35,255 nt of DNA from Candidatus Fermentibacterota bacterium (GTDB taxonomy: Bacteria; Fermentibacterota; Fermentibacteria; Fermentibacterales; JCC-6): positions 1 to 35,255 of the forward strand of contig JAUWJE010000001.1 in NCBI GenBank assembly GCA_030607835.1. Reading direction: 5' to 3'. Position numbers and translations under genes: made by a program. Shown one piece after another: positions 9,055 to 22,614 of this stretch; positions within the stretch are counted from its first letter, which is position 1; every line of letters starts with the position of its first letter. The notes under the pieces are model-generated. The model made no database searches. It had not been told where the DNA came from and saw nothing but the letters and a program-made list of their open reading frames with translations.

Positions 9055-9075
9055 TGTGGATTCTCCTGTGGATAT
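9055..9075. promoter_or_regulatory. Two DnaA-box-like 9-mers in the rpmH-dnaA divergent intergenic region
   Basis: TGTGGATTC (9055-9063) and TGTGGATAT (9067-9075) compare with consensus TGTGGATAA. A weaker TTTTCAACA lies at 8976-8984. The region marks the gene-strand switch point. Confidence 0.5.
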
Positions 9076-9126
9076 ATGTGACAAATTGCTGCAAGTTATA
9101 GCGTTAGACTTTCGCCAACGATTGGA

Positions 9127-10476
9127 ATGAAGATGGACAGTTTCAAACCTGACGAGTTATGGATTCAATGTCTCAGTGAAGCGGAAAAATCCCTTGAATC
9201 AACTGAATTTGAAGCCTGGCTGAAGAACTCCAGTTTCGAAGATCTTAATGGCAGTCTTCTCGTAATCCGTTTTCCAAACTCATTCGTTGCTGGTCATGCA
9301 AAATCCAGATTTGGTGAATTCCTTGAGGAACTCATTCGGGATATCTCCGGCAGAAAGGATCTTGCTCTTCAATTTATCGGTGACCCTGCGAAACCAGGTC
9401 CATCATCTTCGATTTCTATTTCCGCCAGGCGATCTTCAAATCAATCTGATACGGTTTTTCTTCGTTCAAACTATACTTTCGATCACTTTGTCGTTGGCCC
9501 TAATAATCAGCTTGCTCACGCAGGAGCACTTGCTGTAGCCCGTGGCAGTAATTCTGCCAGTTATAATCCTCTCTTTATCTACGGTGGTGTCGGACTTGGT
9601 AAAACACATCTTATCCAGGCAATAGCACATCACCTGCGTCAGGACGGAAGAGGTCGAACCTTTCACTACCTTTCCACAGAACTGCTGGTTGATCGATATA
9701 TTAAATCTGTATTACAGAATGACTTCTCAAAATTCAGGAAGCTGTTCCATAATATTGATTTTCTACTGATGGACGACATTCAGTTTCTTAAAGGAAAAGA
9801 GCAGACTCAGGAAGAGTTCTTTCACCGATTCAACGAGCTCCATCAGAACGGTAAACAGATTGTTCTTACTTCAGATAGACCTCCACATGAACTTCAGGAT
9901 CTTCATGAAAGGCTGATCAGTCGTTTTCAATGGGGACTCGTAGCGGATATAAAACCTCCGGAGTACGAAACACGACTTGCTATTCTTCAACTGCTATTTC
10001 GCGATGAGAAATTGGATATTTCACATGATGTCCTCGATTTTATCGCATCTTCTATCAGAAAAAATGTTCGTCAGCTTGCTGGTGTAGTACACAGACTCGC
10101 TGCAATCTCCCGTTTAACAGACTGTGATATAAATATGGATCTTGCCCAGAGAGAGATTCGCTCCTCACTCGGTTCTATAACAAGAAGACTTACAGTGGGA
10201 AACATAACTTCCGCGGTCGCTGAGGATTTCAATGTTTCACCAGGACAGCTTAAGGGAAAACAGAGGAAACGAAGTATTCTTATTCCAAGACAGGTTGCCA
10301 TGTCTCTTATAAGAGAGCTTACCTCTATGTCACTAAAGGAAATAGGTTCGTTTTTTTCTGGTCGTGATCATTCAACCGTTCTAAATTCTATTGACAGAAT
10401 TGATGAACTGAAGAAACAGGATCCTGAACTGGAAAGAACTATAGAAGATTTGAGAAGGAAACTTACTTCAATCTGA
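9127..10476 (+). CDS. dnaA: Chromosomal replication initiator protein DnaA
   Basis: 449 aa. It has the AAA+ Walker A motif GGVGLGKTHL, box VII, and the C-terminal DNA-binding domain (RSILIPRQVAMSLIRELT..., GRDHSTVLNS). Confidence 0.97.
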   Translation: MKMDSFKPDELWIQCLSEAEKSLESTEFEAWLKNSSFEDLNGSLLVIRFPNSFVAGHAKSRFGEFLEELIRDISGRKDLALQFIGDPAKPGPSSSISISARRSSNQSDTVFLRSNYTFDHFVVGPNNQLAHAGALAVARGSNSASYNPLFIYGGVGLGKTHLIQAIAHHLRQDGRGRTFHYLSTELLVDRYIKSVLQNDFSKFRKLFHNIDFLLMDDIQFLKGKEQTQEEFFHRFNELHQNGKQIVLTSDRPPHELQDLHERLISRFQWGLVADIKPPEYETRLAILQLLFRDEKLDISHDVLDFIASSIRKNVRQLAGVVHRLAAISRLTDCDINMDLAQREIRSSLGSITRRLTVGNITSAVAEDFNVSPGQLKGKQRKRSILIPRQVAMSLIRELTSMSLKEIGSFFSGRDHSTVLNSIDRIDELKKQDPELERTIEDLRRKLTSI

Positions 10477-10478
10477 TA

Positions 10479-10619
10479 TGTGGAAAATTATATAGATAAT
10501 TTGTTTAAAAATAGTTGTTGTTGAAAACTCATCATTCACTGAACTGTTTTCCACATTTATTCAACAACCCTAAATGAACATGTGTTCTTAATAACAGGTG
10601 ACATGTCTACATATCCACA
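10479..10619. promoter_or_regulatory. DnaA-box cluster plus an AT-rich stretch in the dnaA-dnaN spacer (candidate oriC/DUE)
   Basis: TGTGGAAAA (10479-10487), TTTTCCACA (10547-10555) and ATATCCACA (10611-10619). The stretch 10488-10530 between them is strongly AT-rich (ttatatagataatttgtttaaaaatag...). Confidence 0.6.
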
Positions 10620-10680
10620 TGTATAATAACTATCATTATTGTTCTCTTATAATTGTTTTCATAAAGCTGGAGGAAAACGT

Positions 10681-11817: not shown

Positions 11818-11862
11818 GGGCAATAAGGGTATAATGGTGCGCTTTGTGAATAATTGATACTA

Positions 11863-14101
<2,239 letters not shown>

Positions 14102-14135: not shown

Positions 14136-16607
14136 ATGCTTGGAGGCGGACATTTGAGCGGCAGCACAGGTAAGATAATAGATATCATAGACATAGAAGA
14201 GGAGATGAAACGCTCTTATATGGATTATTCCATGAGCGTTATAGTCTCGAGGGCACTTCCCGATGTCCGAGATGGGTTGAAGCCTGTACACAGACGAATT
14301 CTGTATTCGATGTACGAACAGAAACTTACGCACAGGCGACCGTATAAGAAATCCGCTGCAGTAGTGGGGGATGTTCTTGGAAAATATCACCCGCATGGTG
14401 ATAGCGCTGTCTATGACGCAATGGTACGGATGGCGCAGGATTTCTCGCTGAGACACCCTCTGATAGATGGACAGGGAAACTTCGGATCGGTAGATGGAGA
14501 TCTGGCAGCAGCGTACAGATATACGGAAGCAAGAATGTCCAGAATTGGCGAAGAACTGCTTCGAGATATCGATAGCGAAACAGTCGATATGACCCCCAAT
14601 TTCGATGATCGCCTGAAAGAACCGTCCATCCTGCCCGCCGGCATGCCACATCTTCTCGTTAATGGATCATCTGGAATTGCTGTTGGTATGGCCACGAATA
14701 TACCGCCACATAATCTCAGAGAAGTTGTAGAAGCCTGCTGTAGAATCATAGAGAACCCCGACCTGTCAGATGAAGAGCTTTATGAGATCATCAAGGGGCC
14801 GGATTTTCCAACAGGAGGAATAATCTCGGGACTTCGGGGAATCAGAAATGCTTACAGTACCGGAAAGGGATTAATTCATGTCCGCGGTAAAGTGACTACT
14901 GAAGTAACACCAAAAGGCAGGGAAGCAATCATAATTGTGGAAATTCCCTATCAGGTAAACAAGACGTCACTTATCGAATCTATAGTAGATCTTGTCAAAC
15001 ATAAGAAGATAACGATGATAGCTGATCTTCGGGATGAGTCCGACAGAGATGGCATGAGACTGGTAATAGAACTTAAGAAAGATGCTGTAACTGAAATAGT
15101 CCTTAACCAGCTTTACAAACACACCACGCTTGCAAAAACATTCGGAGCCAACTGTCTTGCTCTTGCTTCCGGAAGACCATTAAGGCTAAATCTCCGACAG
15201 ATGATTGATTACTACATTGAACATCGTCATGATGTCATTGAGAGAAGGATAGCTTTCGACCTGAAAAAGGCGGAAGCAAGATCACACATTGTCGAAGGTC
15301 TGCTAAAGGCTCAGGATGTGATAGAAGAAGTAATAAAAGTTATTAGAGAATCTGGAAGCAGCGAAGAAGCAAAGAAAAAACTTATAGAAATATTTGATTT
15401 CTCCGAAATACAGGCTCAAGCCATTTTGGAAATGCGCTTAAGAAAACTTACCGGACTTGAGCGGGAAGAACTGGAAGTAGAGTTTGAAGAACTCCGGGTT
15501 CTCTTGGAAGGACTTCGAATAATGGCCTCGGATCGCTCAGAACGCATGAAGGTTGTGTCAGAGGAACTAAGGGAAGTTGCCGAGATATATGGAGAAGACA
15601 GGAAAACGGAAATAGAACCTTATGCAGCAGATGAATTTGATATTGAAGATCTTATACCTGATGATGCAATGGTAATTACCCTCTCTCGTGAAGGATACGT
15701 AAAGAGGCTTTCAACAGATACTTATAGAAGTCAACACAGAGGTGGAAAAGGAATTACTGGAGCGAGAACGAAGGAGGAAGATTCAATTGATCAGATTTTT
15801 GTATCCTCCAACCATAGTTATATACTGTTTTTCACCAATCAGGGAAGATGCTACTGGTTAAAAGTTTACAAGATTCCTGAAGTTGGAAGAATCAGCAAAG
15901 GGAAAGCTATAGTGAATCTTCTGGATCTCGAACCGGAAGAACGTCCTGTCGCGAACGTATGCGTAAAAGAATTCGATGAAAACCGCTTTATCCTGATGGC
16001 GACCAGCAATGGATTAATTAAGAAAACCCCTCTTTCCAGTTACAGCCATCCTCGACGGAACGGCATATGGGCGATCAAGCTTGATGAAAAGGCAGAACTC
16101 GTCAGTGCTTCATTGACAAACGGAAACAGCCGGGTTCTGCTTGCACTGGCAAACGGGAAGGCCAATAGATTCAGTGAAAAAGAAATACGTTCCATGGGAA
16201 GATATACAAGAGGAGTAAGAGGAATAAACGTTACTGGAGATGACCGCCTCGGTGGAATGGTTATCATGCATGTGCCAGGAAGCATGCTCACAGTGACCGA
16301 GAACGGGTTTGGAAAGAGAACGTGGTCTGAGGATTACAGACTTACTCACAGGGGAAGCGCCGGTGTTATTAACATCCGTAATATTCAGCGGAATGTCCGT
16401 GTAATTTCAATAATGCACGAGGCAAAAGAACATGAGTTAATCCTAGTTTCAGCCCTCGGCATGATAAAACGGTTACAACTCGAACAGATTAGAGAAATGG
16501 GTAGAAGCACTATGGGTGTAAGACTTATGAATCTGCCGGATAACGACAGAGTTGTTGACGCTGCTGTAGTCCAACCGGAGGATGAACAGGTTCCAATAGA
16601 GGAGTAA
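14136..16607 (+). CDS. gyrA: DNA gyrase subunit A
   Basis: 823 aa. Motifs include [12 protein letters not shown], the [14 protein letters not shown], the catalytic [11 protein letters not shown], and C-terminal beta-pinwheel repeats. An in-frame TTG at 14154 sits 7 nt after GGAGG (14142-14146) and is an alternative start. Confidence 0.97.
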
Positions 16608-16876
16608 AAATAAAAGTAAGTGAAATAGTCCGAGAGATAGAATCCTGGAGCAAAGAGAACAAGCTCTATTCAGCTCGCCCTCCGGAAGTTGGAAAAGGTT
16701 TTTCTCTACCCGCAAAATCACTGAACAAATCTGTTATCACGCCAGAAGCAAGAGACAGCATATTCAAAATAGACCTCTTCTCAAAGGACTGGCCAGAAGC
16801 GGGAGAAATTCTTGCGTACCTTCTTTCAAAAATAAAAGAAAGTGATGGTCGGATTCTTCTCGAAAATCTATCCAGT

Positions 16877-19800
16877 ATGAATGAACCTCCTCCTGTGGAA
16901 CAGGATATGGCAACGAAATGGTTCTCCGCAGTTAGTAACCTTCCGTCTTCTGCTGTTGTTGTAGCCGTCCTCGAATTCTTCCAGTTGAGCTGGACATGGA
17001 ATCAGATAGGACCGAGTACAGGATTAACATTTAATGAATTCCTCAGCCTGTTATATCGAGTGTTTCAGGTACTTGCAGAAACGCAAGGAGATATATCTCT
17101 TGTTCGGAGCCTGATACAGATGGGTTCTAACTGGCCTGAACGTTTCGGATTTATCCTCGAGAGAACGAGAATCGGCGGAGGAAATGTCATACACGCTCTG
17201 GAGAAAGCACAGGAACTGATACCTGAAATACCACATGTTTCTGAAAATTCTCTTGTTGATTTCGCTCTGGAAACAGGATGGTATCTTCTCGGAAACGAAA
17301 GCCTCCCTGTATGGAGAGCTGTTGGTAGAAATGGAGAATCTCTTCTGAGAAAGCTGCGGGGATTTTCAATACAGATGGAGTCAATAAAGGTTCTTTCAGG
17401 ATTTCTTGGTCGACTGGAGGAGACGGATCAGCTTCAAAATCTGCTTGAAGATTCAATTCCAGATGAAATAGAAAAAATAGTCGGCTCACTCGAAGAAACC
17501 CTGCTTTCAGAAGTGCTTGAACTGCTTTCAGAGGAAGCGATCAGAGCGCTTAAAAGACGATCTGAAAGAGATATGTGCCTGGAAATCATAGGCATTCCCG
17601 CACGGGACTGTTCTCATTATGAATACGGACAAGCCATAGCCGAGATAATGTTGTTCAGGAGTAGAGGGAAAGCGGAGAGAAAGGTATTTATAGAGGTTTG
17701 TGCCTGTTGCGCGACAAACGAAAACGCCTGTCCTCTTATTGAAATCGCTAAACTGTCGGCTGAACGCAGGGAAACACCTTTTTATGATTCGATAAAGACA
17801 GAGCACTATTTTCGATTCATACCAATCGCTCTTTCGATTCTTGAGGGCAAAGAAAAATCTCCGGAATACAGGCGAGTTACTAATTCCATAGGTCGACTTA
17901 TGGATGCAATACTGAGTCAGGATGATCCAGTCATATCACTGGAATCACTTGAGAAGTTAATGGCGGAATCAGAAATCAATTTCGATAAGCTTCTTCCGGC
18001 TATGATCCTGTTGCTTCGATCAACCAATGAATCATTGAAACATGAGCACGTTATCAAGAGCGAGATATTCGTCTCGATACTTGATCTGTTTGATGAAAAT
18101 TACCGCCGAAGAATTCTTGAAGGAGAACACACAGACTGGCTTGCTCCCCTTGCTAATGGAACCATTGATTCCTGCACGAAGGTTGTTGAGGCGCTTGGGA
18201 GAATTTCAAACCGATCTCTCCGAAGTCGCTTTATGGACAAAGTGATAGCTCCTCTCTTTCAGGAGATAGGATCGGAGGAGTTAATATTTAGCGAGTTAAT
18301 CACTTCGGCCGTCTCCACATACAACAGAGATATGAATTTGGAACAGCTCAGAAATGAAGAAACAAGTATCCTTGGTCAACTATTCAGAGCAGAAGACAGG
18401 AGCAAAGCGCTTAAGGTCTCAATGAATCGACTCCTGCGGATACCTGGCATAGAGGAAAAAAGCGCAAACGATCTTATTTACTGCGCCCGTAATCTTTGTG
18501 AGACTCTTTCACAGCAGGCGGTCTGGCTGGAGAAATCAGGTCACAGGATCTTCAGCAGGTTCCTCTCAAGAGGATTGACGGCTTTTGTTAAAACTCTGGT
18601 TGAGTATCCTGAGGTTTCGGAACACCTGACAAGCGGTAACCTGATGAGAGAATTGCTGACCAGACTGATTCCTTCAAAGGAAATGGAAGACAGCAATGTA
18701 GCTCTATGGCAGCTGAAAACCGCTTCGGTGTTTTTCGGTGAGACTATTCCATACTCGGTGGAAATACTTGCAGGCCGACCTGATTTAGTTGTTTCATATC
18801 TTCGAGATATTACAGAACTTGCTGTTGGCTCGATGCATGGTGAACTTGCAGGAGCTACTTTCCTTTCCTGGATGTCGAACAGACTTGAGAAAAGACTCAT
18901 AGAAGAATATGCACGAAAACTTCATAGCAATTCAATTCTTACAGAACTGCAGAATGATATTGACGGATCACAGTTAATGAATGCCTGGAGAGGTGTTCGA
19001 AACAGCTCGTCAACAATACTGAGAGATGCAGTTGATTCACTGAAAGTTGTAACCCAGCAGATACTTCACAGAAAAATTGTAATAAGAGAAGGAAGAAAAC
19101 TAGTTGAAGGTTTTATAGAAAATGGATCTGAGGAACTTATTTCAAAAGTCTCTGTGTCTCCGGACAGAAAAGAGGTTACAGAGCTGCAAAAAATTGCGGG
19201 AGATTTCGAGCTGATAGATATTTTCAGAATCATGGAGGGAAGAGAACCGCCTGGAAAGAAAAAACAGCTTCCTGCGAACTTAGAGCAGTTTTTCTATTCG
19301 CGCGAACGTGACCGCGAGTGTCCTCCGGGAGAGAATCCCAGCAGGTACTGGAGGAGCAAAGCCTTCTCTACTCTGGAGAATGTACTTATTGACATCATTC
19401 TGCTCTATACAAGCAATGAAAGCCTATCGAAGATTGAACAGATGATGGATGATTTTATCGAGATTGTTGGTTATCTTGGTGCCGATGAAGTCTTCAGACC
19501 GGAAATAATTTTTACAGCATTGGAAAAATCCCTTTCAAAGACGGAAAGAGGAAGAAAGCTGACCGTTCAGACTGTGGAGAAAAAGCTTGAGAAAAACATT
19601 TACAGGCTCATGTGGCGCAGAAAAGCAACGAGCAAAACAGCCGAATCTGTAAGAGGATTGATTCCGGAGAAAAAAATAACCAACATGCTTTTTGATAGAA
19701 TTACCAGAGAAAATACATCAAGAGAACAGATTCTCTTCACAAAGAAATACGCAAGAATATTCGCATCGATTGAAAGCATAATCATGAAGCACAAGGACTC

Positions 19801-20275
19801 GGAGATACAATCTGCCAGATCGGTTCTTCAACATATCTGGATATTTAATTCGGAAGCGGTCAGACCCTCTTCAACGGTCGAAACCGCAAGAGACGCAGTA
19901 GAAACAATAACCCAGTTCTTCCTCGAAATAGGAGCCAGAACAGGGGCTGTAACCGCGCTTGAAGCCGGTACGATAAGCCTGGGCATGAGACGTAAATACA
20001 GAGATAACGCCAACACAGTTGCCATACTGATCAGATGGACGCAGGACTCATCCAGGGGAGACCTTCTTGCGCTTGTTGAAGCGCACCACCCTCTTCTTGA
20101 AGCAGTAAGCCGAGACAGCGAATTGATTCAGCTTATTGATGATATGTGGGATGACGGTAAGGCACGGTTATACATCAGGTCACTCGCGGATCGACCGGAC
20201 AGACTGAAAGACCGTTTGCTTCATCATATCGGAATGAAGTCCAAATGGAACATCAATGGCATCAGATATGTCTGA
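16877..20275 (+). CDS. Large (1132 aa or more) hypothetical protein. It looks all-helical, with no motif I can assign.
   Basis: A long uninterrupted ORF with coding-like composition. There is no terminator after gyrA, and its 3' end overlaps the asparaginase ORF by 20 nt. I see no Walker A motif, TM segment or signal peptide. The same frame is stop-free back to 16586. Confidence 0.8.
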   Translation: MNEPPPVEQDMATKWFSAVSNLPSSAVVVAVLEFFQLSWTWNQIGPSTGLTFNEFLSLLYRVFQVLAETQGDISLVRSLIQMGSNWPERFGFILERTRIGGGNVIHALEKAQELIPEIPHVSENSLVDFALETGWYLLGNESLPVWRAVGRNGESLLRKLRGFSIQMESIKVLSGFLGRLEETDQLQNLLEDSIPDEIEKIVGSLEETLLSEVLELLSEEAIRALKRRSERDMCLEIIGIPARDCSHYEYGQAIAEIMLFRSRGKAERKVFIEVCACCATNENACPLIEIAKLSAERRETPFYDSIKTEHYFRFIPIALSILEGKEKSPEYRRVTNSIGRLMDAILSQDDPVISLESLEKLMAESEINFDKLLPAMILLLRSTNESLKHEHVIKSEIFVSILDLFDENYRRRILEGEHTDWLAPLANGTIDSCTKVVEALGRISNRSLRSRFMDKVIAPLFQEIGSEELIFSELITSAVSTYNRDMNLEQLRNEETSILGQLFRAEDRSKALKVSMNRLLRIPGIEEKSANDLIYCARNLCETLSQQAVWLEKSGHRIFSRFLSRGLTAFVKTLVEYPEVSEHLTSGNLMRELLTRLIPSKEMEDSNVALWQLKTASVFFGETIPYSVEILAGRPDLVVSYLRDITELAVGSMHGELAGATFLSWMSNRLEKRLIEEYARKLHSNSILTELQNDIDGSQLMNAWRGVRNSSSTILRDAVDSLKVVTQQILHRKIVIREGRKLVEGFIENGSEELISKVSVSPDRKEVTELQKIAGDFELIDIFRIMEGREPPGKKKQLPANLEQFFYSRERDRECPPGENPSRYWRSKAFSTLENVLIDIILLYTSNESLSKIEQMMDDFIEIVGYLGADEVFRPEIIFTALEKSLSKTERGRKLTVQTVEKKLEKNIYRLMWRRKATSKTAESVRGLIPEKKITNMLFDRITRENTSREQILFTKKYARIFASIESIIMKHKDSEIQSARSVLQHIWIFNSEAVRPSSTVETARDAVETITQFFLEIGARTGAVTALEAGTISLGMRRKYRDNANTVAILIRWTQDSSRGDLLALVEAHHPLLEAVSRDSELIQLIDDMWDDGKARLYIRSLADRPDRLKDRLLHHIGMKSKWNINGIRYV

Positions 20276-21269
20276 CCACATTGAATCTCCAGTTAAAGAA
20301 ATAGCTCTTGTTTCTACTGGAGGTACTATTGAAATGATGACCGGTAGAAGAGGACTGGTTATTACAGACGGCATTAATCAGTATCTACTTGATGGAGACG
20401 TTATTCCTGCCAATATCAATGTCACAAAAATTGAATTCAGCAGTGTTCCCAGTCCACATATTACTCCTGCTAGAATGAGAGAACTCTGTCTCAGGCTTGA
20501 AGAGCTTGCAGCCTGCGGAAAATATGATGGAATTGTCGTAACTCACGGAACAGATACACTGGAAGAAAGCGCTTTTCTTGCGGATATATATTTGAATGAA
20601 CAGGTGCCAGTTGTCTTTACAGCAGCAATGCGAAGTTATGCTGAGATGGGAGTTGATGGACCGAGAAACCTTAGAGGGGCTTTGCTTGTTGCTGCAAATC
20701 CTGAAGTTCATAAGTTGGGAGTTACAGTAGTTCTTAACGACGAGATTCACGCCGCAGGAAGGGTCACTAAGACGTATACAAGTAATGTAAGCAGCTTTGC
20801 GTCACCAGGCTATGGCCCTCTTGGCTTTGTGGATCAGGATAGGATTCTTCTGCAGAGAATGCCTTTATGGAGACTTCATCTGCCGCCCGGAGAACTTATT
20901 ATGAACAGAAGAATAGGGCTTGTCAGAATAGCGTCTGGTTTTGGCGCAAGAGAAATCAGATTCAGTGCGGATTGTGAAGACCCTGGGCTGGTAATAGAGG
21001 CATTCGGACGGGGTAATGTTCCGGTAGATGTTGCGCTCGCGATTGAATATGCGGTAAACAAAGGCACAATAGTCTGTGTATCAAGCAGATGTTACATTGG
21101 AAGAGTGCTTGGTGTTTACAACTATTCAGGGGGTGGTGTTGATCTGGAGCAGAAAGGTGCAATCTTTGCAGGAGATATTCAGGGACACAAGCTGAGATTG
21201 CTGCTTATGGCATGTGTTGGCATGAAGTGCGACAGTCAGGAAATCAGAGAACTGCTTAAGGGACTTTGA
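20256..21269 (+). CDS. ansA: Type I (cytoplasmic-type) L-asparaginase
   Basis: 337 aa. It has the STGGTIEM (TGGTI) catalytic threonine motif, HGTDTLEE, and a size typical of the family. An alternative start lies at 20268. Confidence 0.85.
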   Translation: MASDMSDHIESPVKEIALVSTGGTIEMMTGRRGLVITDGINQYLLDGDVIPANINVTKIEFSSVPSPHITPARMRELCLRLEELAACGKYDGIVVTHGTDTLEESAFLADIYLNEQVPVVFTAAMRSYAEMGVDGPRNLRGALLVAANPEVHKLGVTVVLNDEIHAAGRVTKTYTSNVSSFASPGYGPLGFVDQDRILLQRMPLWRLHLPPGELIMNRRIGLVRIASGFGAREIRFSADCEDPGLVIEAFGRGNVPVDVALAIEYAVNKGTIVCVSSRCYIGRVLGVYNYSGGGVDLEQKGAIFAGDIQGHKLRLLLMACVGMKCDSQEIRELLKGL

Positions 21270-21347: not shown

Positions 21348-21695
21348 ATGCCTGAGAAGGGTTTTACTGCGACTTTCATTTCTAATTCGGGTAAAACACA
21401 CCATCAGTTCAATATAAGCGGGTGGAAGCTTCATCTGAGCAGGGTAATACTGGCGCTATTTGTGCTTATTGTGTCTGCCGCGGTAGTAATTGTTGCTTTA
21501 GGGTTGATTGAGACTGGAGAAACAGACAGACTCAGAGAAGAAATTTCCAGTCTGCAGGATTCCCTTGTAATAAGGCGGAATATTGAAGCACGCCTGGAGA
21601 ATATTGAAGAGAATCTTGAACAGTTAGGAAGTTTCAGACAACGAATCGAAAACATCGCGGGTATTATTTCACCGCAGTTGGATTCTCCAGAGTAA
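21348..21695 (+). CDS. Single-pass membrane coiled-coil protein resembling the N-terminal anchor of M23 (LytM) peptidases but lacking the peptidase domain
   Basis: 115 aa. GFTATFISNSGKTHHQFNISGWKL is followed by the TM segment ILALFVLIVSAAVVIVALGLI and then a coiled coil (LREEISSLQDSL...LENIEENLEQL). The stop comes 38 nt before the bactofilin gene. Confidence 0.6.
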   Translation: MPEKGFTATFISNSGKTHHQFNISGWKLHLSRVILALFVLIVSAAVVIVALGLIETGETDRLREEISSLQDSLVIRRNIEARLENIEENLEQLGSFRQRIENIAGIISPQLDSPE

Positions 21696-21733
21696 TAATG
21701 CGATAGAGAATAAGAAAAGAGGAAACAGGAATC

Positions 21734-22090
21734 ATGTCCAAAAAGGAGTTTTCGTCCACCATGGATTCCATTCTTGGATCCGGCAGCACTTGCAGGGGTT
21801 CACTGAAAGTAGAGGGAGGGCTCAGAATAGATGGTACCGTGGACGGAGAAGTTATAGTATCCGGTACTCTGACTGTAGGTCGAGAAGGATTAATTTCAGG
21901 TGATGTAACGGTGAACCAGGCGATTGTTGGCGGAACAATACAGGGAACAGTGAGAGCTGAGCAGCAGCTTGAGCTTCAAAGTGGATCCAGGCTTGAGGGA
22001 GATATTTTTACACGCTCTCTTGTCATTGAAGATGGCGTCTTCTTCGAGGGTAGTTGCAAAATGAGCCATGGCAACGAGTCAGGGTCTTGA
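21734..22090 (+). CDS. Bactofilin (DUF583 polymer-forming cytoskeletal protein)
   Basis: 118 aa. It has the repetitive beta-helix pattern (G.L.VEGGLRIDGTVDGEVIVSGTLTVG..G.ISGDV....AIVGGTIQGTV.A...LEL.SGSRLEGDI....LVIEDGVFFEG). Confidence 0.9.
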   Translation: MSKKEFSSTMDSILGSGSTCRGSLKVEGGLRIDGTVDGEVIVSGTLTVGREGLISGDVTVNQAIVGGTIQGTVRAEQQLELQSGSRLEGDIFTRSLVIEDGVFFEGSCKMSHGNESGS

Positions 22091-22196
22091 TGTGGAAAAT
22101 GTGGAAAAGATTGCTAAACTGTGGAAAACTACCTAACTATATGATATTCAAAAGCATACATAATCACTTAAAGTAGTTTCATAAGTTGTATCCACA
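22091..22196. promoter_or_regulatory. Dense DnaA-box-like cluster upstream of the V-type ATPase operon
   Basis: TGTGGAAAA occurs at 22091-22099, 22100-22108 (directly abutting) and 22120-22128, with GTATCCACA at 22188-22196 in inverse orientation. The same 9-mer variant is used at 10479 and 10547. Confidence 0.6.
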
Positions 22197-22293
22197 ACAG
22201 ACACTGTCATGGAGGTATAGCGCTGTTCCCGGTTGTTTCAATGCCTGGAAGACCGATGTTCCCAAGTTGATTAATCGAAAGGCTGGTATTCAA

Positions 22294-22614
22294 ATGGCGA
22301 AGCTCGACATACTCCGCGAGGGCGAGAAGCAGGCCAGACAGGTACTGGAGAACGCTAAAAAAGATGCCCGGCGGATAACACAGAGCATTCCAGAGATGAT
22401 TGAGGAATTGAAACGGAAGAATGACGATTATCTTGGAAAAGTTGCGACCGAAGCTGAAACGGCTGTGGATAAGATTGTAATTCAGCTGAAAGAAAAGCTC
22501 GAAGGAAAGACAGACAGGAAGCTCGAATTACTGTCGGAGTATACCGTGAATCTTGAGAAGACCGCAACTGAGAGTCTTCGTGAACACATACTCAGGGGCG
22601 GGAAAGAGGACTGA
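22294..22614 (+). CDS. A/V-type ATPase peripheral-stalk subunit (H/G-like)
   Basis: 106 aa from the ATG at 22294 (MAKLDILREGEKQARQVLENAKKDARR...). It is an all-helical charged protein in the first position of an H-I-K-E-C-F-A-B-D operon. I reject the upstream TTG extension (22186) in the track. Confidence 0.55.
   Translation: MAKLDILREGEKQARQVLENAKKDARRITQSIPEMIEELKRKNDDYLGKVATEAETAVDKIVIQLKEKLEGKTDRKLELLSEYTVNLEKTATESLREHILRGGKED

Follow-up and report, generated by a model that had tools for sequence, protein, structure and literature searches.

A large all-helical protein encoded directly after gyrA in Fermentibacterota, with a proposed AUA start codon at the gyrA stop

Introduction

What is the role of a very large protein that is encoded directly behind a subunit of DNA gyrase, and where does its gene begin? 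The question is raised by a stretch of 35,255 nucleotides (nt) from a Candidatus Fermentibacterota bacterium (assembly GCA_030607835.1, contig JAUWJE010000001.1, positions 1 to 35,255), which is referred to throughout as the window. Its plus strand carries an uninterrupted open reading frame of 1132 codons at 16877..20275 (+). The name X is used here for the protein of this frame and for its revised, longer form. A previous sequence-only reading had described X as an orphan, all-helical protein with no recognizable family, encoded between gyrA and an asparaginase gene. On the basis of that context a nucleoid or replication role was suggested, and X may indeed have one.

The open frame exists and is the largest of the window, as had been stated, and its start required revision. 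It is well supported that X is a real gene, that it is ~89 codons longer than annotated, and that it has a non-canonical start at the gyrA stop. It is equally well supported that the X family is undescribed, with no known family, fold, or system that accommodates it. With respect to function, our tentative reading, to which we assign a probability of about 0.4, is that X would be a non-enzymatic helical scaffold, produced at a low fixed ratio to GyrA by termination-reinitiation and acting with gyrase or with the origin-proximal chromosome. If true, this reading would provide the first functional handle on a core origin-proximal gene of the uncultured phylum Fermentibacterota.

The coding region of X

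The start at 16877 lies too far downstream. The reading frame is open from position 16586, and the 89 codons that precede the annotated ATG are conserved in every relative, although they contain no in-frame ATG, GTG, or TTG. The revised coding sequence extends over 16610..20275 (+), contains 1221 codons plus the stop, and specifies a protein of ~139 kDa with an isoelectric point of 5.8. The N-terminal extension encoded by the 89 codons at 16610..16876 (+), which is missed by an ATG-based call of open reading frames, is recognized by its conservation, by its ratio of nonsynonymous to synonymous substitution rates (dN/dS), and by a modelled helix. It is conserved in the alignment wherever gene callers included those residues. 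When 25 species-representative genomes were searched with tblastn, the match always began at residue 1 of the extended query, and in most of these 25 loci the stretch is again without an in-frame ATG, GTG, or TTG.

The dN/dS calculations were performed within the window's own clade (the window, L004-L007, and L010), where no canonical start precedes the ATG. Values for the extension (88 codons) range from 0.18 to 0.49 as compared to 0.17 to 0.32 for the next 300 codons. Since the extension resembles the rest of the gene in this respect, the stretch is translated, and the 89 residues are under purifying selection. In the structural models described below, residues 3-16, which lie inside the extension, form the first helix of the N-terminal domain in blocks with mean predicted local distance difference test (pLDDT) values of 91-92. 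Coding of X is thus shown to begin ~267 nt before the annotated ATG, either on an ATA at position 16610 or no more than a few codons away from it.

The public calls for P0001-P0005, P0022, P0024-P0027, P0030, and P0032 begin at differing internal ATG or GTG codons and yield lengths of 1122-1212 residues. Most database entries are therefore truncated at the N-terminus by 20-90 residues, a systematic annotation error whereby gene callers shorten X in most genomes.

The gyrA-X junction

The gyrA gene is found at 14136..16607 (+) (Pfam DNA_topoisoIV, E 3.5e-160, and DNA_gyraseA_C), with its TAA stop at 16605-16607. Two nucleotides past this stop is the ATA at 16610..16612 (+), the proposed non-canonical AUA start codon of X. 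An in-frame ATA occupies this position, and opens the conserved region, in every core-clade locus. A Shine-Dalgarno-like GAGGAG, read from the sequence at 16599..16604 (+) inside the 3' end of gyrA, precedes the ATA of the window by 5 nt, and a GGAG-type motif is observed 5-8 nt 5' of the ATA in nearly all core-clade loci. The gyrA stop is overlapped by the ATA as ATAG or ATAA in ~30 related loci. Four loci display a TGA-G-ATA junction, and that of the window reads TAA-AA-ATA. The final gyrA codon varies among the core-clade loci (GAA, AAA, ACA, CAA, AGA, ATA), with the third base always being A.

In the deep-branching relatives (22-34% identity), a canonical start is located at the same alignment position as the ATA. 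The junctions there take the form of ATGA or GTGA (-4 overlap), TGATG (-1), or ATGCCTGA (-8), or the ATG is positioned 4-38 nt past the stop. In the deep-branch locus L030, a Shine-Dalgarno-like AAGGGGAG accompanies X's own ATG. The stop of gyrA and the start of X, both on one strand, are thus related by the 4- or 1-nt overlap or the few-nucleotide gap by which coupled pairs are recognized (ATGA, GTGA, TGATG, ATAG, and ATAA, with +2 nt in the window). Translational coupling is classically marked by overlaps of -4 and -1 nt (PMC12548453, PMC6728339).

The gyrA gene of the window is two codons shorter than those of its closest relatives, reading GAG GAG TAA AAA TAA as opposed to GAG GAG CAG AAA TAA. 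Given this earlier stop, a 2-nt gap has taken the place of the ancestral ATAA overlap, and the former stop can still be read in frame downstream of the new one.

On this arrangement, ribosomes that finish gyrA would re-initiate on the near-cognate AUA, and X would be synthesized only alongside GyrA, in a much lower amount and at a low fixed ratio. Initiation at AUA in Escherichia coli has been measured at ~1-2% of that at AUG (bioRxiv 10.1101/063800), and AUA is usable as a start given a good initiation context (PMC5499595). The simplest history of the core-clade junction is a single G-to-A change from ATGA. Such a change to ATAA would have retained the gyrA stop (TGA to TAA) while weakening the start of X (ATG to ATA), and the ATAG forms would have been derived later from ATAA. 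An RNA hairpin that masks the start of X was considered and rejected, in that the junction RNA shows no significant structure (z-score of -0.63).

It is unusual for an AUA start to be conserved within a stop-start overlap, and the case is open to direct testing. The gyrA-X junction resembles a natural translation experiment in which an ATG start was degraded to ATA with the frame still under purifying selection clade-wide, and it bears on the strictness of start-codon choice during reinitiation.

Structure and relatives of X

The AlphaFold2 model of full-length X is helical throughout, in keeping with the claim of the sequence-only reading, with a pLDDT of 74.9 and a predicted template modelling score (pTM) of 0.49. 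The first 350 residues, encoded at 16610..17659 (+), fold in the model into an all-helical N-terminal domain of 20 helices (pLDDT 92.4, pTM 0.88), which is the best-conserved part of X within the Fermentibacterota. Among the columns that are invariant family-wide, Trp, Gly, Pro, Leu, and Phe predominate, and polar residues are few.

The absence of a P-loop and of a transmembrane segment, also noted before, was borne out: a regular-expression search of X for the Walker A motif [AG]xxxxGK[ST] returned nothing, the highest hydropathy of any 19-residue segment is 1.46, which gives no indication of a membrane segment, and Pfam yielded no AAA, SMC, or ABC match in X. Likewise, no tandem internal repeats emerged when all pairs of 120-residue profile segments were compared with hhalign (best probability 3.8%), as expected from the earlier remark that repeats were not obvious. 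The suggestion of an ARM/HEAT-like solenoid, on the other hand, finds no support from Pfam, repeat detection, or a natural fold match. With Pfam, no family matched full-length X at E<=1, and none of relevance matched five sub-segments of it at E<=10; the top Foldseek matches are designed helical repeats (template modelling (TM) score 0.34), with no natural solenoid at E<0.01.

A cluster of cysteines had been singled out as the one conspicuous local feature. The peptide, EVCACCATNENACP, is present in the translation at 17693..17734 (+), but it is specific to the window sequence: homologues display EVYALCEKNKNTD, EAYSIAIETDDNN, and similar stretches at these columns. A metal site at this cluster was consequently rejected.

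The segment LLRIPGIEEKSANDLIYCAR, encoded at 18431..18490 (+), resembles a helix-hairpin-helix (HhH) motif and is a weak lead only. Against PDB profiles it is aligned with the N-terminal domain of RadA (E 0.07) and, insignificantly, with NusA chains of ~70 residues (E 0.7-0.9); the regions matched in both are HhH regions. Of the HhH pattern h-x-x-h-x-G-h-G-x-x-x-A, the sequence IPGIEEKSA carries the first Gly and the Ala, and the second Gly of the G-h-G turn is replaced by Glu. The full-length model places a loop between helices 572-586 and 597-617 at this site. Pfam shows no HhH match in X at E<=10, and the motif is not kept in the remote homologues described below.

At its C-terminus (20252-20272), X ends in DG[IL]x[YF][VI], which appears as NGIRYV in the window. 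In some loci the Tyr and Val codons of this tail also contain the ATG of the next gene. A docking role of the tail was considered; its conservation is limited to the core clade, and it is left as an observation.

Searches of Pfam, NCBIfam, PADLOC, and PHROGs with the whole of X, five sub-segments, and distant homologues provided no useful match, the best being noise-level hits such as ribosomal protein S13 (E 0.013) and, in one homologue, SMC_hinge (E 0.016). For X itself, PADLOC returned 0 matches, the sole PHROGs match (E 0.029) was to a family of unknown function, and tblastn against 72,556 plasmids found no match; these searches do not place X among defense or mobile-element proteins. Sequence-profile searches of the PDB with three alignments yielded only designed helical repeats (8eoz_B, E 2e-5) in addition to the weak RadA and NusA matches. 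Foldseek was run with the full model on the PDB and with the N-terminal domain model on both the PDB and BFVD, and it revealed no match at E<=0.001 and no natural neighbor, the designed repeat 7upp_B being found at E 8e-3 and a TM score of 0.34. The statement that X belongs to no recognizable family therefore holds, with no confident profile or structure match to a characterized family.

The term "orphan" is inexact for X, which has a narrow lineage range but not a lack of relatives. A search with the extended sequence identified 38 close database homologues, many of which cover the extension, and all those with a source name are from Candidatus Aegiribacteria or Fermentibacteria. Approximately 60 distinct Fermentibacterota contigs, from genomes and metagenomes, carry X, deep-branching relatives among them. 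A profile search of 1.84 billion representative proteins produced only 23 relatives, two of which are remote: P0056 (1475 residues), from locus L033, and P0058 (1380 residues), from Candidatus Coatesbacteria. Both are without the N-terminal domain of X and share its C-terminal two-thirds, encoded at 17837..20266 (+) (hhalign: probability 97.3%, E 1.9e-11, 777 aligned columns). Two word-indexed protein searches that started from distant members yielded no more than 2 and 1 proteins, and a metagenome scan seeded with the remote clade gave nothing useful. As judged from these searches, the family is confined to the Fermentibacterota, with remote C-terminal relatives in Candidatus Coatesbacteria and one unplaced lineage.

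Gene neighborhood and function of X

Upstream of X, the window carries dnaA, dnaN, dciA, gyrB, and gyrA. Downstream are an asparaginase-family gene, genes for a 115-residue protein, a bactofilin, and a 142-residue protein, and a V-type ATPase operon. The immediate neighbors are as previously claimed, namely gyrA and the asparaginase-family gene at 20256..21269 (+) (Pfam Asparaginase and Asparaginase_C), a frequent neighbor of X, and no terminator-like site is present on the plus strand between gyrA, X, and the asparaginase gene. The reported 20-nt overlap of X with the next gene was also confirmed; it shortens to 8 nt if a second ATG, at 20268, is used. Two findings had been named as counting against the earlier reading, a confident match to a characterized family and a lack of conserved linkage to replication genes. 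Neither was obtained, and the tie to gyrA proves stronger than the window alone could show, X directly following gyrA in every Fermentibacterota locus examined. The order gyrB-gyrA-X is observed in every such locus with enough flanking DNA (~60 distinct contigs).

X is read as a scaffold rather than as an enzyme because it carries no catalytic signature, its models are all-helical, its invariant residues are mostly structural, and it diverges rapidly. It would act as a non-enzymatic helical scaffold or adaptor, the most likely partner being DNA gyrase or the gyrase-bound chromosome near the origin, and the asparaginase-family enzyme would be a second, dispensable partner. Note that "helical scaffold" is a generic description of X. 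Should X indeed act with gyrase, topoisomerases would have a partner of a new kind: a 139-kDa, all-helical protein encoded in the gyrase operon. A more specific version, in which X is an unknown accessory subunit or regulator of gyrase whose ratio to GyrA is hard-wired by AUA reinitiation, the start having become fixed clade-wide after one ATGA-to-ATAA change, is doubtful.

Several observations weigh against the proposal of a scaffold tied to gyrase. First, ATA is a common codon in these genes, accounting for 46% of their Ile codons, and another invariant-Ile column is ATA in 25 of 26 sequences; the case for the start therefore rests on the combined evidence and not on codon identity alone. 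Second, additional in-frame ATA codons occur at 16625 and 16637, and either could be the actual start. Third, all Fermentibacterota loci are collinear over the 16 kb that run from dnaA to the V-ATPase operon, such that adjacency within the phylum is, by itself, weak evidence of function. In L033, gyrA and the homologue are set apart by a clear terminator-like hairpin and ~200 nt. The HhH lead does not reach statistical significance. Finally, the N-terminal domain contains, in the core clade, many invariant polar and Gly residues, which could form a binding or active site.

The alternative that survives best, although it is rather unlikely, is that X serves as a lineage-specific structural or housekeeping scaffold, for example cytoskeletal or envelope-related, which is unrelated to its neighbors and simply resides in a frozen origin-proximal block. 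The order dnaA-dnaN-dciA-gyrB-gyrA-X-asparaginase-hyp-bactofilin-hyp-V-ATPase (hyp, the 115- and 142-residue proteins) is invariant across ~60 loci and also includes pairs without obvious shared function. Moreover, the fold of X resembles nothing specific, and X evolves far faster than its housekeeping neighbors, with identities of 24-32% where those of GyrA are 63-68% (for L032 versus the window, 24% for X, 63% for GyrA, and 58% for the asparaginase). What such a scaffold leaves unexplained is that the gyrA/X stop-start overlap has been kept in several forms (ATGA, GTGA, TGATG, ATGCCTGA, ATAG, ATAA), which argues for selection on coupled expression and not for mere adjacency. In addition, the two sole remote homologues adjoin the same two neighbor families in surroundings that are otherwise unrelated: P0056, like X, lies after gyrA, among different genes, and P0058 starts 3 nt past a true gatD (514 bits versus a cut-off of 310). 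That this is due to chance is very unlikely.

The surroundings of these two homologues are as follows. In L033 (5098-13558; unplaced lineage, Logan SRR28093593), the X homologue is succeeded by DUF1257, DUF2997, a 764-residue protein with a faint TPR match, and a PatA_N protein. In the Coatesbacteria locus L034 (8669-14143; GCA_016927185.1), a gene for an 887-residue GlnD-like nucleotidyltransferase precedes gatD, and the full-length GatD is followed by the X homologue and not by gatE.

The adjacency of P0058 to gatD also favors a different alternative, namely that X and the asparaginase-family amidohydrolase form a two-protein complex. By analogy with GatD-GatE, a glutaminase/asparaginase subunit would be attached to a large substrate-holding partner, and the position after gyrA would be an inherited order without meaning. 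The X and asparaginase genes overlap or nearly touch in most loci (20 or 8 nt in the window, 8 nt in L001 and L032, and a 1-nt gap in L029 and L036). The enzyme of the window keeps the TGGT and HGTDT motifs, yet fits no known subfamily, scoring below every NCBIfam cut-off (150.9 versus 314 for type II, 120 versus 260 for type I, and 106 versus 310 for GatD). Such a complex is nonetheless improbable. Only two distinct contigs do not have the asparaginase-family gene after X, and in those two independent cases (L021/L058, which are one contig, and L038) the gyrA-X pair is retained. No asparaginase gene is near the homologue in L033, which lies beside gyrA. Furthermore, X has neither a GatB- or GatE-type domain nor a Walker A motif, and Pfam detected no GatB_N cradle or GatB_Yqey tail domain in either X or P0058.

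A GyrA-X fusion that arises when ribosomes undergo a -1 frameshift immediately ahead of the gyrA stop is highly improbable and was rejected. In its favor, the X frame is open across the last gyrA codons, most core-clade loci are without a canonical start, and a run rich in A, CAAAAATAA, is found at the junction of one locus, L007. Against it, no slippery heptamer is conserved, with most loci reading TCGGAATAG, the junction RNA is without significant structure, no more than ~7-8 codons separate the opening of the X frame from the ATA in most core-clade loci, and in the deep-branch relatives X has an ATG of its own, positioned past the gyrA stop or overlapping it.

The origin region

The sign of the GC skew changes near 9-10 kb, and DnaA-box-like sites are clustered around dnaA, which places the block at a replication origin. 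The spacer between dnaA and dnaN (10477-10638) is AT-rich and contains three DnaA-box-like sites, and one more lies at 9067, on the upstream side of dnaA; the region 9067-10640 is likely oriC. DciA is a helicase-loading factor that stands in for DnaC or DnaI. A DciA-family gene at 11854-12207, between dnaN and gyrB, overlaps the called gyrB start and is present in every locus that extends that far upstream.

On the other side of X, use of the second ATG of the asparaginase-family gene, at 20268, gives an 8-nt overlap, ATGTCTGA, as in L001. The three genes that follow (21348-22611 in the window) are found as a trio in nearly all loci: the 115-residue protein belongs to no family, the second is the bactofilin, and the 142-residue protein weakly matches the SpiroCoCo/LA_3659 coiled-coil family (E 4e-4). 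The DnaA-box-like sequence TGTGGAAAA occurs three times, at 22091, 22100, and 22120, with one mismatch to TTATCCACA on the minus strand, and a further GTATCCACA is located at 22188. These sites (22091-22196) fall in the spacer from the bactofilin gene to the gene of the 142-residue protein, the first of the V-ATPase operon. In all, 16 DnaA-box-like sites occur in the window as compared to 7.5 expected, and 22091-22196 may serve as a second cluster bound by DnaA or as a promoter under DnaA control.

Comparison with known systems

The HhH proteins RadA/Rad51 offer a local likeness to X, in that LLRIPGIEEKSANDLIYCAR aligns with the RadA stretch LTDIEGISEKAAAKMIMAAR and a loop is modelled between two helices there. 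X differs from the HhH regions of RadA/Rad51 and NusA in having Glu for the second Gly, no Pfam HhH match, E values of 0.07-0.9, and a motif that is lost in the remote homologues. With the alpha-solenoids (HEAT, ARM, and designed repeats), X shares an all-helical build of short helix-turn-helix units, and its matches are to designed helical repeats; unlike them, it has no Pfam HEAT/ARM match, no internal repeats, and no natural solenoid among its Foldseek matches. The archaeal Glu-tRNA(Gln) amidotransferase, GatD-GatE, is comparable in that a gene for an asparaginase fold adjoins that of a larger partner, with a true GatD in the Coatesbacteria. It differs in that GatE/GatB domains are absent from X, and in that the N-terminal domain of GatD is missing from the Fermentibacterota enzyme.

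Gyrase-binding modulators include GyrI/SbmC and MfpA/Qnr. The known gyrase modulators are small proteins whose folds are known, and none of them is known to have its gene immediately behind gyrA with a coupled start. Others that bind gyrase are YacG (PMC2490753) and PprA (PMC4863600). The proposed partner of X is likewise DNA gyrase, but X, with 1221 residues and an all-helical model, shows no sequence or fold similarity to any PDB entry.

In E. coli, infC is read from a conserved AUU start and is autoregulated through its product, initiation factor IF3. Efficiencies of near-cognate starts have been measured (bioRxiv 10.1101/063800, PMC5499595). As in weak starts of the infC type, a conserved AUH codon in X implies initiation that is deliberately low or condition-sensitive. 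The codon of X is, however, AUA and is placed at the stop of the upstream gene, and IF3-dependent regulation is a feature of infC.

The closest parallel to the junction itself is provided by gene pairs with -4 (NTGA) and -1 (TGATG/TAATG) overlaps, which are read by termination-reinitiation (PMC6728339, PMC10666635, PMC12548453); such translationally coupled pairs often encode subunits of one complex (PMC10666635). The window departs from them by its 2-nt gap, and the core clade by a start that is ATA rather than NTG (ATAG/ATAA) and that is kept clade-wide. The deep relatives of X have exactly the -4 and -1 overlaps, and the core clade keeps the -4 geometry together with the upstream GGAG.

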